Counted from the stretch's first letter, positions 21,029 through 30,748 are shown. The stretch is DNA of 64,000 bases from Mnemiopsis leidyi (GCA_048537945.1 CM108484.1:18945034-19009033), one strand, 5' to 3'. Translations and numbers: made by a program. Notes: generated by a model not told the origin, from the letters alone.

Positions 21029-21493
21029 ATGTCATAAAATACATAAACAAACTAGAGCACGAACGGCGTGGATAACCTCAGTGGGCGCGCGCGGGTTCCG
21101 TCGGTGCTGCTTTGCAGTAGTCCGCGGGCGCGCTCGGCCTGATGGGGTGCGCGCTGCGACGGCGAAGTGGGATCGGCCACACGCTGATTAACATGGCAGC
21201 CAAACCGGGGTCTATTACCCGTAAGTAGTATTGTTTGTCGTTCTGACCATCGATTGCCTATATATCCTGCACACTTGTCAGAAGGGGTAAAATAAAGCAA
21301 TCTGATTGGTTTTACGCTCGCTGTCACGAGGATTTAAGGCCGTTTATTGGCTAAGATGTGTCTCGTGACTTTTGTCACGTGATTTATATAGAGCTTTAGA
21401 CCTTCAGCAGTTGGCTCAATTTCGAGGTAACGTGATCAGAATGTCATGTGACGAATATCACGAGGAGCTTGATACGTTAGCACTTTTGGGTCA

Positions 21494-21523
21494 AATTTAA
21501 GCCGCGCGCGCGGCTTAAATTTT
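21494..21523. other. Perfect 30-bp hairpin palindrome AAATTTAAGCCGCGCGCGCGGCTTAAATTT, ~270 bp inside the left TIR end
   Basis: Self-complementary. Its counterpart at 30066-30093 has one fewer GC unit. Confidence 0.9.
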
Positions 21524-22626
21524 TTCCTTTGAGCACAAGGTACATTGCACTATTCAATTCGACAGTTCGAACAATGACACAAATTGAATTACAAGATCTA
21601 CATTATTCCAATATAAATAATATTTCGACAATAATTTAAAACACAATAAAAGTAAGAAAACTATTAAACAGTATCTTAACAATAGCAATACAATAACAAC
21701 AACACAAACGCAAAATATTTTAAGCTAAATATCTAAGTATGTAGTGCTTATACCGTCGTTAAGGACCTTGCGTTTGCAATAGAAATATGATAACCCGCTT
21801 CTTTCCATCGCATAACTCAACATATTATTGTCCTTGAGTATGAATCCTCGGTTCGTCGAGCTCACGCTTTGTTTTGTGTGTAAAACGGAGCGGAAGTGAT
21901 CGATGGAGATTTTCGCGGCTTTGTTTATCCCTTTAGTGGAACACTTTTCTTTCTGTCTGTTGTCGGGATTGAAACAAAAGTATGTCTTCGCTGCAAGACC
22001 AACAAATCCGCCACCGCTCCACTCAATCTTAAAGAGACCTGGAAATAATCATACATTATTCCATTGATAGAATAATCATGGTGCCGTTATTTGATCATTA
22101 AATCGGTATCAGACGGAAAACAAAGAATCAAGATTATACATTAACTTGAACGGAAGCGATTGAATATCAGTATTATTAGATGTGACATATTACATATTAC
22201 ACTCACCCGGTGTACGTTTATCATAGGCGGCATTCTCAGCTGTATCAGACCTGGGAAACCAATGGCTTTTTGCTACCAACCACTCCGATTTGAGGTCACT
22301 TGTCACTAACTCGTCCAGAGTTTCCGCTGCCAGAGCCATGTACAGTGAATCTGTGGATAATTTATAGCATTTATCGTCGTTTGACTGTCACTAAGGCTGT
22401 CACACGGTGTAGAACCGTAGAAATTGTCAAAAAGCCGAGCAGGTTGTTAACTAAAGCCGCGCGCGCGCGCGGCGCGCTAATGCGCTTGTAAGTGATGTGC
22501 TTTATACTCCAATAAATCGTTTCGCGCGCAAAAAACGCAAAATGAAGAAGAAGACCGTTTTTCAACTTTAAGCAAATTCTTTATTTTCCGCATCATATTT
22601 GAATAAAATATCGTAATCTGACAAAC

Positions 22627-22783
22627 CTGTGTCCATTTCACATAACGAAAACAGAGGACGAGGGATGTATCGGACAAGGACGTCAAAATAAAACGCTAAC
22701 ATTCGTAGCTTAGCATAGGAGTATACAAAGAAACCAATCTGTATTGGCAAATTGTGTCGTATTGATTTCTTCTTAGAAGTTAC
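22627..22783 (-). CDS. polB candidate exon 7 (VTSKKKSIRHNLPIQ...YFDVLVRYIPRPLFSLCEMDT)
   Basis: Open phase-0 frame from a tttcag acceptor to a G|GTTTGT donor. MDT plus a following GAT could complete a DTD motif. Speculative. Confidence 0.25.
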
Positions 22784-22889
22784 CTGAAATTGATGTCGAT
22801 AGAATGTACAAGATGAGTTGCTTGCCCAAATTATTGAATAGATCGCTCAACAAGGGTACACTGGAAATCATTGCGACAATTATAATTAC

Positions 22890-23029
22890 CTCGAAGCAGG
22901 TATCCGACAGTTCATCCAATGTTGAAAATCTTGGACTGTTTACAAGGTCCGATGCCGCTTCCACGTCGACAATCTTAACATCCACGTGTCGAGACTTGTT
23001 CATGATGCTGTACCCGTAAAATGAATTGC
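22890..23029 (-). CDS. polB exon 6 with Pol motif B (KLIG|NSFYGYSIM ... LDELSDTCFE)
   Basis: The cccag acceptor restores the frame so that KLIGNSFYG is read across the junction, matching Kx3NSxYG. The following SDTCFE is motif-C-like but lacks the second Asp. Confidence 0.6.
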
Positions 23030-23173
23030 CTGGGATACAAGTCTTATGTTAAAAGAATGTTTTTGTTGCTAGTTCCTTGACGTCATTACTTTCATTTCTT
23101 GAGCAACACTTCGAAAACGCGAATATAATCAACAAAACAGAAAACCAGTAATTTAAGATTTTGCGAGACTTAC

Positions 23174-23817
23174 CAATTAATTTACTGGTCTCAGCAACGA
23201 TTTTCAATGCCGGATCAGTATCCCCAGCTCTACGGTCGTTTGACACGCGATCAGCGAACGCTTTGAAACAGTTTTTTGGTGCAAATTCAATGATCTGATG
23301 AATTCTGGACACCTCAAGGCCGTGTTGAATATACCAAGTCAATAATGGGGTAATCATTAAAATTTTTTCACCCCACATTGACCCGATAAGATATCGGGTG
23401 GGTTTGAAAGACTTCCCAGTAGAACTGAGAAAGTCAGTCATATGGTCGCCAATATCATTCTCGGTGACAGTGGTATTTTTAAATACCGGCGGCATCTCAC
23501 CAAAGTGAGATTTGAGGTTTTCAGGAACTCGAACATCACACTGAACTGCACCAAAAATCCTTCCATCTAAAATAGCGGACAAGATCTGATCTTGTGACAT
23601 CCTATACCGATATTCTGTAGGGTAGACGTAGCTGTTATGGGGCACGTGATCTCTCTTGTGTTGAGACCAGGAACACTCCCACATCTCCACAAGCTGATAT
23701 CCGAGACTACGTAGGTACTTGCTGGTCTCTTCTGTCTGCTTATATTTCTCATTAAGTGTCCTCCCTCCGACCTTGACGTCACGATTGTCTGGTTTGCATG
23801 TAGGGCATCCGTGATAC
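23174..23817 (-). CDS. polB exon 5, inside the left TIR (RYHGCPTCKPDNRDV ... RRAGDTDPALKIVAETSKLIG)
   Basis: tttag acceptor in phase 2 links ...GFC-R-YHGCPTC. G|GTAAGT donor at 23173, phase 1. Confidence 0.65.
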
Positions 23818-28415: not shown

Positions 28416-28559
28416 GTAAGTCTCGCAAAATCTTAAATTACTGGTTTTCTGTTTTGTTGATTATATTCGCGTTTTCGAAGTGTTGCTCAAGAAATGAAAG
28501 TAATGACGTCAAGGAACTAGCAACAAAAACATTCTTTTAACATAAGACTTGTATCCCAG

Positions 28560-28699
28560 GCAATTCATTTTACGGGTACAGCATCATGAACAAGTCTCGA
28601 CACGTGGATGTTAAGATTGTCGACGTGGAAGCGGCATCGGACCTTGTAAACAGTCCAAGATTTTCAACATTGGATGAACTGTCGGATACCTGCTTCGAG
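28560..28699 (+). pseudogene. Orphan inverted copy of polB exon 6 (motif B) in the right TIR
   Basis: Identical to rc(22890-23029). Confidence 0.7.
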
Positions 28700-30065
28700 G
28701 TAATTATAATTGTCGCAATGATTTCCAGTGTACCCTTGTTGAGCGATCTATTCAATAATTTGGGCAAGCAACTCATCTTGTACATTCTATCGACATCAAT
28801 TTCAGGTAACTTCTAAGAAGAAATCAATACGACACAATTTGCCAATACAGATTGGTTTCTTTGTATACTCCTATGCTAAGCTACGAATGTTAGCGTTTTA
28901 TTTTGACGTCCTTGTCCGATACATCCCTCGTCCTCTGTTTTCGTTATGTGAAATGGACACAGGTTTGTCAGATTACGATATTTTATTCAAATATGATGCG
29001 GAAAATAAAGAATTTGCTTAAAGTTGAAAAACGGTCTTCTTCTTCATTTTGCGTTTTTTGCGCGCGAAACGATTTATTGGAGTATAAAGCACATCACTTA
29101 CAAGCGCATTAGCGCGCCGCGCGCGCGCGGCTTTAGTTAACAACCTGCTCGGCTTTTTGACAATTTCTACGGTTCTACACCGTGTGACAGCCTTAGTGAC
29201 AGTCAAACGACGATAAATGCTATAAATTATCCACAGATTCACTGTACATGGCTCTGGCAGCGGAAACTCTGGACGAGTTAGTGACAAGTGACCTCAAATC
29301 GGAGTGGTTGGTAGCAAAAAGCCATTGGTTTCCCAGGTCTGATACAGCTGAGAATGCCGCCTATGATAAACGTACACCGGGTGAGTGTAATATGTAATAT
29401 GTCACATCTAATAATACTGATATTCAATCGCTTCCGTTCAAGTTAATGTATAATCTTGATTCTTTGTTTTCCGTCTGATACCGATTTAATGATCAAATAA
29501 CGGCACCATGATTATTCTATCAATGGAATAATGTATGATTATTTCCAGGTCTCTTTAAGATTGAGTGGAGCGGTGGCGGATTTGTTGGTCTTGCAGCGAA
29601 GACATACTTTTGTTTCAATCCCGACAACAGACAGAAAGAAAAGTGTTCCACTAAAGGGATAAACAAAGCCGCGAAAATCTCCATCGATCACTTCCGCTCC
29701 GTTTTACACACAAAACAAAGCGTGAGCTCGACGAACCGAGGATTCATACTCAAGGACAATAATATGTTGAGTTATGCGATGGAAAGAAGCGGGTTATCAT
29801 ATTTCTATTGCAAACGCAAGGTCCTTAACGACGGTATAAGCACTACATACTTAGATATTTAGCTTAAAATATTTTGCGTTTGTGTTGTTGTTATTGTATT
29901 GCTATTGTTAAGATACTGTTTAATAGTTTTCTTACTTTTATTGTGTTTTAAATTATTGTCGAAATATTATTTATATTGGAATAATGTAGATCTTGTAATT
30001 CAATTTGTGTCATTGTTCGAACTGTCGAATTGAATAGTGCAATGTACCTTGTGCTCAAAGGAAAA

Positions 30066-30093
30066 AATTTAAGCCGCGCGCGGCTTAAATTTG
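30066..30093. other. Perfect 28-bp hairpin palindrome in the right TIR (mirror of 21494-21523)
   Basis: Direct reading of the sequence. Confidence 0.9.
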
Positions 30094-30194
30094 ACCCAAA
30101 AGTGCTAACGTATCAAGCTCCTCGTGATATTCGTCACATGACATTCTGATCACGTTACCTCGAAATTGAGCCAACTGCTGAAGGTCTAAAGCTC

Positions 30195-30242
30195 TATATA
30201 AATCACGTGACAAAAGTCACGAGACACATCTTAGCCAATAAA
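30195..30242 (+). promoter_or_regulatory. TATATAAA box adjacent to a CACGTG E-box, followed by CCAATAAA, ~130-170 bp inside the TIR tip; mirrored in the left arm near 21345-21390
   Basis: Sequence motifs only. Could be an outward-reading promoter or the polyadenylation signal (AATAAA at 30237) of the polB transcript. Confidence 0.3.
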
Positions 30243-30748
30243 CGGCCTTAAATCCTCGTGACAGCGAGCGTAAAACCAATCAGATTGCTTTATTTTACCC
30301 CTTCTGACAAGTGTGCAGGATATATAGGCAATCGATGGTCAGAACGACAAACAATACTACTCCCGTACGGTATATTATTACGCGCAGGTGTCATCGGTGC
30401 GGCTCGCCGATCCGGGACGTCCGGTGACAAGCTGGTCAGCATATATGACCTCCATATCTGAAAGCAGGTTGGGGGCACTACGGAAAGCTTAGAAGCTTCC
30501 GTCCACTACTACTACTACTACTTACCCCAGTACGACAAGCAAAATCTAAACACATGTGAACGCAGTATAGAGTTGCAACTTGTCTAAGGCATTTCTCAAT
30601 TTCTTATCAGCGTGTGTACTTTTAATCACCTTATCTATATGAGATCATTTCATGTGCTCAATTTAGTGTCTATCGATTTGTGTGAATTTTTATATGACTT
30701 TTGATTACGTTTTAAGATTCCTAATAATTTTGCAATTTTGATACCGTT

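Follow-up and report, generated by a model that had tools for sequence, protein, structure and literature searches.

The 64,000-nucleotide stretch of the Mnemiopsis leidyi genome analysed here (GCA_048537945.1 CM108484.1:18945034-19009033; hereafter the window, with positions counted from its first letter) contains a 9,138-bp unit at 21224-30361, in which two inverted arms enclose a unique core, as established by a repeat search and a full alignment. The unit has kept one complete gene, an intron-rich family-B DNA polymerase of the protein-primed kind (pPolB) bearing a Vsr-like insert, plus both termini. Very probably it derives from a young Maverick/Polinton family that is multi-copy in M. 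leidyi, and it is an integrated form without autonomy; a single copy-back or fold-back event is the probable way in which this derivative was made.

The left arm (21224-24042, 2,819 nt) begins with AGTAGT and represents the native pPolB-proximal terminus; a 501-bp non-coding end is followed in it by exons 11-6 and by 74 nt of intron 5. The unique core (24043-27546, 3,504 bp) holds the rest of intron 5 and exons 5-1, and upstream of the ATG just 39 bp of native sequence remain. The right arm (27547-30361, 2,815 nt) is an inverted duplicate of the left one, starts 40 bp upstream of the polymerase ATG, and ends with ACTACT. Because the inner edge of the left arm (24042) lies within intron 5, the arms hold exons 6-11 with their introns and the 501-bp end. 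The right arm thus carries the last third of the pPolB coding sequence (~2.3 kb of the 5.8-kb gene span) as a truncated, inverted copy on the plus strand, with exact matches, backed by tblastn, to exons 6-8 (27621-27656, 27772-28415, and 28560-28699) and exons 9-11 (28806-28962, 29237-29380, and 29549-29862).

The repeat search pairs 21224-24042 with 27547-30361 in three contiguous blocks of 100% identity, and the full alignment of the arms shows only three differing sites. At two of them, near 21503 and 22458, a (CG)n palindrome contains a 2-bp indel, and the third is a single C/T difference (23984 in the left arm, 27605 in the right), the right-arm state being a CpG G>A change. A perfect 28-nt palindrome, AATTTAAGCC(GC)nGGCTTAAATT, is located in the terminal region (21494-21521), and its right-arm copy (30066-30091) is 2 nt shorter. 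The base composition of the unit (~39-42% GC) is ordinary for the window. The layout of 2.8-kb arms, a 3,504-bp core, and a 9,138-bp unit agrees with that given in an earlier note on this DNA. The same note described the arms as exact reverse complements, which is correct as to near-identity but not in view of the three differing sites, and all pairs of encoded open reading frames (ORFs) as identical, which is nearly true (the pair across the 22458 indel differs, with 63 versus 89 aa).

The unit starts with AGTAGTATTG and finishes with CAATACTACT, thus reading 5'-AGTAGT...ACTACT-3', and it is flanked by two copies of CCCGTA, read directly at 21218-21223 and 30362-30367, which form a perfect 6-bp target-site duplication (TSD). 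The chance of such a match is 1/4096, since the boundaries of the repeat were set independently of the flanks. Mavericks are characterized by the 5'-(AGT)2//(ACT)2-3' end motif and a perfect 6-bp TSD (PMC8097293), and the unit shares with them these ends (of the (AGT)2...(ACT)2 type, the variant being (AG)3...(CT)3), the TSD, the terminal inverted repeats (TIRs), and the protein-primed family-B polymerase. It differs in its dimensions. Intact vertebrate Mavericks measure 12.7-24.6 kb and have TIRs of 46-1,447 bp (PMC8097293), whereas the unit, with 9,138 bp, a single pPolB gene, and 2.8-kb arms composed largely of the 3' part of the polymerase gene, falls outside the ~13-25 kb and ~0.05-1.5 kb typical of the class. 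The TIRs had rightly been called overlong. The accompanying view that the arrangement is not a textbook transposon class does not stand, as textbook Mavericks have just these ends and a 6-bp TSD, the same genome contains full-length relatives that are near-identical, and a complete Maverick of Bolinopsis has the orthologous gene (see below). The unit is a derivative of the known Maverick class and not a new class of transposon.

The complete pPolB gene occupies 21725-27507 on the minus strand and consists of 11 exons and 10 GT-AG introns, with an intact ORF. The exons, all bounded by canonical splice sites, lie at 27507-27337, 27178-25011, 24833-24745, and 24644-24438 (exons 1-4), 24324-24093, 23968-23933, 23817-23174, and 23029-22890 (exons 5-8), and 22783-22627, 22350-22207, and 22038-21725 (exons 9-11). 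The spliced coding sequence of 4,302 nt is uninterrupted and encodes 1,433 aa. The protein is composed of a degenerate zinc-finger N-terminus, followed by Exo I-III, Pol A, the Vsr-like insert, Pol B, and Pol C. The four motifs reported previously are all present: FDIECA at residues 509-514, GQKYDIP at 618-624, DANALYLW at 879-886, and KLIGNSFYG at 1180-1188. In the case of the introns, those seen previously ("at least 6") are real but the number is 10; the exon list given then lacked 24833-24745, 23968-23933, 22783-22627, 22350-22207, and 22038-21725, and its exon 24672-24438 had a misplaced acceptor, the true start being 24644.

Nine internal exon junctions sit inside the most conserved motifs of the protein: YNNR/DV (Exo III), ISV/PG, GL/DANALY (Pol A), GFCR/ASN, FHGC/WYHGC, KLIG/NSFYG (Pol B), CFE/VTS, EMDT/DS (Pol C), and KRTPG/LFK (the slash marks the junction). 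All nine spliced junctions align gap-free to homologues, including the proteins of uninterrupted ORFs on metagenomic contigs. Intron 1 (27336-27179) has the same donor and acceptor as in the GenBank model P0024, and the exon halves around it jointly align to one zinc-finger unit of the homologues. On the basis of these junction alignments and the support for intron 1, the ten introns are considered real. The GenBank models of M. leidyi use the same splice junctions as the gene described here.

A homology search with the spliced protein returned relatives in M. leidyi (P0003, 98% identity; P0001, 78%; P0004, 53%) and in Bolinopsis microptera (P0002, 72%). Distant homologues (33-42% identity, 1,100-1,650 aa) come from amphioxus, sea anemone, echinoderms, and marine metagenomes; they carry N-terminal C2H2 fingers, and several also contain PF03175. 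The pPolB protein aligns end to end (E=0) with proteins above the PF03175 cut-off, and 5 of the 14 aligned family members pass the threshold of this profile (best 4.6e-9). Two of the proteins, P0007 and P0009, match both the PHROG DNA polymerase family and the PHROG endonuclease family. Taken with the intact ORF, in which Exo I-III and Pol A-C are all found, these comparisons support a protein-primed polymerase of the Polinton type, as had been proposed, by way of the homologues that pass PF03175. A cellular replicative family-B polymerase (alpha, delta, epsilon, or zeta) was considered and rejected: neither the pPolB protein nor its 14 relatives have a match to the cellular DNA_pol_B or DNA_pol_B_exo1 Pfam families, and the gene is multi-copy and located inside a transposon.

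The segment between polymerase motifs A and B (residues ~950-1018) is encoded by exons 5-7 (23667-24112, minus strand) and reads AVDGFC...QFHGCWYHGC...MWECSW. A profile of this domain searched against the PDB matches three Vsr chains only (E=1.4e-4). Its AlphaFold model has a predicted local distance difference test (pLDDT) value of 84, and the top two Foldseek matches are 1CW0 and 1VSR (probability 1.00, template-modelling score 0.47-0.51). According to the model, the insert is a Vsr-like endonuclease fold. The PDB search with a profile of the full family was swamped by zinc-finger matches, and a polymerase-only profile gave a weak Vsr match and no polymerase. A VSR insert is the hallmark of the marine Polinton pPolB2 subgroup (Jeong et al. 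2023; bioRxiv 10.1101/2023.08.22.554363), and a Vsr domain is inserted into the polymerase here as well. The protein resembles this VSR-bearing group in the way it works and probably belongs to it. The nematode and mollusc pPolB2 elements are similar to ours in this insert, in their marine invertebrate hosts, and in the conserved Exo and Pol motifs (bioRxiv 10.1101/2023.08.22.554363). The differences are the host, here a ctenophore, and the N-terminal C2H2 zinc-finger array of the present family, which is degenerate in the unit.

Of the other Maverick genes, none is found in the window. A tblastn search with the integrase of the Bolinopsis Maverick gave no rve integrase match in the window, and capsid proteins, a packaging ATPase, and an adenovirus-type protease are likewise absent from it, in agreement with the lack of integrase, ATPase, protease, and capsid ORFs noted earlier. 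Because integrase and capsid module are missing and the size is below that of a Maverick, the unit is classified as a non-autonomous derivative and not as an autonomous member of the family. Of the three options offered in the earlier note (a minimal pPolB-only self-synthesising element, a collapsed Polinton, or a host-domesticated palindromic locus), the evidence supports the second.

The family to which the unit belongs is multi-copy in M. leidyi. The cluster of at least 90% identity around P0003 comprises 18 distinct M. leidyi sequences on at least 7 chromosome-scale contigs (11.4 to 21.5 Mb); its members differ from the pPolB of the window by 0-10 residues, with 98-100% identity for many gene models. 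Four models (P0003, P0024, P0030, and P0037) have ~250 extra residues fused to the polymerase that are 82% identical to the capsid-like ORF of Bolinopsis, and these capsid-like/pPolB fusions imply that the genome also contains full-length Mavericks whose polymerase is near-identical. The polymerases at 78% and 53% identity represent two further lineages, each of them multi-copy and with the same exon structure. With copies differing by ~0.4%, the family is apparently young and recently active. The searchable literature yielded no account of Mavericks in Mnemiopsis or in ctenophores, and the locus records what appears to be a recently active Maverick/Polinton family in a new host.

The M. leidyi annotation looks inconsistent for this family (P0003, P0024, P0030, and P0037; P0025, P0027, P0029, P0033, and P0034). 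In many models the polymerase is divided at intron 6, giving one protein that ends in ...FHGCW and another, of 473 aa, that starts within the intron, and several omit the 36-nt exon 6, which encodes conserved residues of the Vsr motif. The gene structure described above explains these split and fused "hypothetical protein" models.

The idea of a host-domesticated polymerase gene in a palindromic locus draws on the ten introns, the intact ORF, and the exon structure conserved between Mnemiopsis and Bolinopsis. It is scarcely credible in the face of a gene that is multi-copy on at least 7 chromosome-scale contigs with ~0.4% divergence, in a unit that has a TSD and the termini of an element. In Bolinopsis the counterpart is the final gene in a complete Maverick, and no synteny was seen in the flanks.

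The Bolinopsis counterpart lies at Bolinopsis microptera CM047411.1:6176942-6202589 (locus L004), where a row of uninterrupted same-strand ORFs is followed by the intron-bearing polymerase. Among the products of these ORFs are an rve integrase (PF00665, 44 bits), a P-loop ATPase, a 436-aa capsid-like protein resembling a major capsid protein, and a Peptidase_C5 (adenovirus-type) protease, so that through this relative the likeness to Mavericks/Polintons extends to the integrase and the morphogenesis genes. The polymerase is 72% identical to that of Mnemiopsis and has the same exon blocks. It is followed by ~570 bp of terminal sequence that ends with ACTACT. By its gene content and end, the locus is a canonical Maverick in which the polymerase comes last. 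The element, at 384-16226 of the locus, looks complete and is longer than 16 kb, its left end lying beyond the recovered locus. One of its ORFs (1396-1866) is a stand-alone paralogue of the N-terminal domain of the polymerase (residues ~218-277). The ATPase adjoins the polymerase also on three ENA contigs (L001-L003).

The genes upstream of the Bolinopsis polymerase are all uninterrupted ORFs, while the polymerase itself is multi-exon, as in Mnemiopsis. It is unusual that one gene has ten conserved introns when the rest of the element is apparently intronless, and the ctenophore host is unusual too, as is the copy-back architecture; the intact vertebrate elements are reported to be intronless. 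The terminal motifs TATAAATCACGTGAC and CCAATCAGA are common to 21224-21724 of the window and 15649-16226 of the Bolinopsis locus, where they form three ~90-bp tandem units. Together with the 28-nt palindrome, they are candidate origin or promoter elements.

The comparison included 80 metagenomic loci. A 17,959-bp contig (L025; ERZ1740072 NODE-395) starts exactly with TAGTAGTAGT and has an inverted repeat at its other end, giving TIRs of ~107 bp or more; rather than being an integrated copy, it may represent a Maverick-like genome in free linear form. A second element (L032) measures ~17.7 kb, with TIRs of ~130 bp. The third (L002; ERZ25084518 ctg154187) is a 9,296-bp contig labelled 136x with non-coding 1.17-kb TIRs that are 94% identical. 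Its gene content comprises a polymerase homologue with stop codons (~4832-4950), an ATPase, and few other ORFs, with no integrase noticed. In none of these three do the TIRs contain polymerase coding sequence. A scan of metagenome contigs for close relatives found none, nor did a scan of viral contigs for relatives.

The breakpoint of the unit is defined by two independent metagenome-derived contigs, L085 and L086, that carry an identical 263-aa ORF of exon 7. The window stretch 25157-21288 is represented in L086. With L085, colinearity at 99.6% identity extends from window position 27547 to 22900, where the contig ends; this contig appears to stem from the locus of P0003 (KAL5262624.1). Position 1243 of L085 corresponds to 27547 of the window, and its first 1,242 bp, which hold a small exon of the P0003 model and a 227-aa antisense ORF, do not occur in the window. 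As L085 continues there with other sequence, the parental element must run on past 27547. At the novel junction (27546/27547) the parental upstream sequence has been replaced by a copy, in inverted orientation, of intron 5 and everything distal to it, which is what gives the unit its unusually long "TIRs". The junction joins the 27546 side to the inverted copy of 24042 with a microhomology of at most 1 nt (T). Relative to the parental copy, this one inversion-type junction accounts for the entire structure.

In respect to the three arm differences, the left arm has the state of L085/L086 in each case, whereas the right arm is derived, having undergone a CpG transition and having lost one CG unit from both palindromes. 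The chance that all three fall on a given arm is 1 in 8, and their distribution is no more than suggestive of the right arm being the newly synthesised copy.

The existence of the parental copy bears directly on the proposal of an autonomous, minimal pPolB-only self-synthesising element that forms a lineage of its own. The intact polymerase ORF and the two intact termini agree with such an element. Yet the 99.6% identical copy L085 continues into other sequence at the breakpoint, so that parental sequence has been replaced there and the unit is a rearranged copy; moreover, an integrase-type TSD is found without an integrase, half of each "TIR" is a gene fragment, and just 39 bp of the native upstream region is left. 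A separate pPolB-only lineage is accordingly highly improbable.

The geometry of the unit, with both ends derived from one terminus through a single novel junction (as seen in the arrangement of arms and core and in the L085 breakpoint), is the result expected if a protein-primed polymerase made a copy-back error during strand displacement. A template switch of this kind during protein-primed strand-displacement replication, followed by integration in trans, is the origin that we favour, at somewhat below an even chance. Synthesis would begin at the pPolB-proximal terminus and proceed 6.3 kb inward, where the nascent 3' end would re-prime at a point 2.8 kb from the 5' end of the displaced strand. 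Copying back to the same terminus would yield a 9.1-kb molecule with two identical ends, and the integrase of a full-length copy would then insert this molecule in trans, generating the 6-bp TSD. With phi29 polymerase, the model pPolB, inversion accompanied by an intervening deletion makes up more than 85% of rearrangements and comes about through re-priming on the displaced 5' strand, and more than 70% of the chimeras use a microhomology of 2-21 nt (PMC1855051). The unit resembles these chimeras, as well as copy-back or snap-back defective viral genomes, in having both ends from one terminus, one novel junction, and an inverted duplication with an intervening deletion, and phi29 polymerase is of the same protein-primed, strand-displacing class (PMC1855051). 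It differs from copy-back genomes in being chromosomally integrated, its episomal origin being putative, and from the chimeras in the microhomology of its junction (0-1 nt).

The same structure could have been made in place. An integrated full-length Maverick would have been broken and repaired by synthesis from the right TIR on the inverted left TIR, with 2.8 kb copied inward, end-joined at 27546, and the internal genes deleted. The TSD and both termini are equally expected in that case, and a junction with at most 1 nt of microhomology fits end-joining. All three differences of the unit are in the new arm, two of them being slippage in (CG)n palindromes, a pattern that fits error-prone repair synthesis. 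This course would require an inverted invasion within the chromatid and, in addition, either two breaks or the removal of more than 10 kb, and no full-length allele of the site lends support. Repair in place is a possible but less likely origin.

Another way to obtain long arms is a parent that already had them: if the TIRs of the family were naturally at least 2.8 kb long and included the 3' part of pPolB, the unit would be explained by an internal deletion alone, running from the inner edge of the far TIR to the region upstream of pPolB. The recovered sequence does not extend to the far end of any full-length ctenophore copy, and the distant relative L002 does have 1.17-kb TIRs. The deletion breakpoint would, however, have to coincide with the edge of the TIR or fall inside it, and the TIRs seen in relatives are either ~107-130 bp long (L025, L032) or non-coding (L002), with those of vertebrate Mavericks reaching 1,447 bp at most (PMC8097293). 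In M. leidyi, C-terminal pPolB models are no commoner than N-terminal ones, and no inverted pPolB fragment is present within 10 kb upstream of the Bolinopsis gene. A long-TIR parent is for these reasons improbable.

Still less probable is an artefact, of assembly or of a chimeric read, that has superimposed the palindrome on an ordinary Maverick insertion. The junction has no match in independent data, and two of the three arm differences are located in (CG)n runs, where they could be consensus errors. But the arms also differ by the CpG transition, and no similarity between 27546 and 24042 exists that could mislead an assembler. The two flanks are not reverse complements of each other, and the right one starts with the same 6-bp TSD, which excludes a simple fold-back read.

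Several observations weigh against the interpretation as a Maverick derivative formed by copy-back. Pfam and PHROG scans of the pPolB protein, whole or as separate ORFs, gave no match (Pfam at E<=1), so that its PF03175 membership rests on transitive homology, and the AlphaFold model of the polymerase body (residues 470-1433, four sequences) has a pLDDT of 38. At the junction, the microhomology of at most 1 nt is shorter than the 2-21 nt of most phi29 chimeras, and look-ups of the two possible junction-spanning ORF products returned no match. The data fit both an event before integration and a repair at the integrated locus. Finally, the sequence recovered for Mnemiopsis and Bolinopsis stops short of the integrase-side end of a full-length copy.

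The stronger form of the copy-back reading, which sees in the locus a defective Maverick genome that arose by copy-back and is now an integrated fossil, is tentative. If true, the sequence would directly attest the replication of Mavericks in the form of free linear molecules, through protein-primed strand displacement, and would show as well that such molecules can integrate in trans. If confirmed elsewhere, the geometry of the unit would provide rare support, at the level of sequence, for such replication. With its two intact termini, the unit would itself be replicated and integrated only in trans. The expression of its pPolB gene is uncertain, because the ~290-bp repeat-containing upstream region seen in L085 has been lost.

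A transcript entering from the right arm would hold the 2.8-kb inverted repeat and could form a long hairpin. In maize, Mu killer, an inverted partial duplication of MuDR, silences the family through hairpin RNA. The unit is similar in combining an inverted partial duplication of an essential transposon gene with an intact copy that lies beside it or overlaps it, and its transcription would likewise give a hairpin, whereas a silencing role is, for the unit, speculation. If read-through does take place, the hairpin RNA would be directed against the polymerase of the family, making the locus a natural "Maverick killer".

The surroundings of the unit are clearly animal genomic DNA, with a satellite, a reverse transcriptase of a long interspersed nuclear element (LINE), and intron-split host genes. 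The 22-bp satellite (18438-20735, consensus CAACTACACACTGTTACCATAG) comprises ~104 copies with 79% matches and lies ~0.5 kb to the left of the insertion; it coincides with a GC skew that is strongly negative at 17-21 kb. A second palindrome is found at 14199-15629, where 343-nt arms, 99% complementary, enclose inverted arrays of 9/18-bp repeats, and ORFs on both strands begin with the same ~50 residues; it looks like a Foldback-type element. A 289-aa ORF at 16105-16974 has no Pfam match. There is no tRNA gene in the window, so this offers no clue as to the integration site. At 1.7 kb to the right of the insertion, a 795-aa ORF (32033-34420, minus strand) matches RVT_1 (E=2.9e-25) and belongs to a LINE-type retrotransposon. 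A host gene at 52130-55636 (plus strand) has several ORF-sized exons (for example ...GIWIDMNEPASF...), which, judged by eye, resemble a family-31 glycoside hydrolase (alpha-glucosidase).

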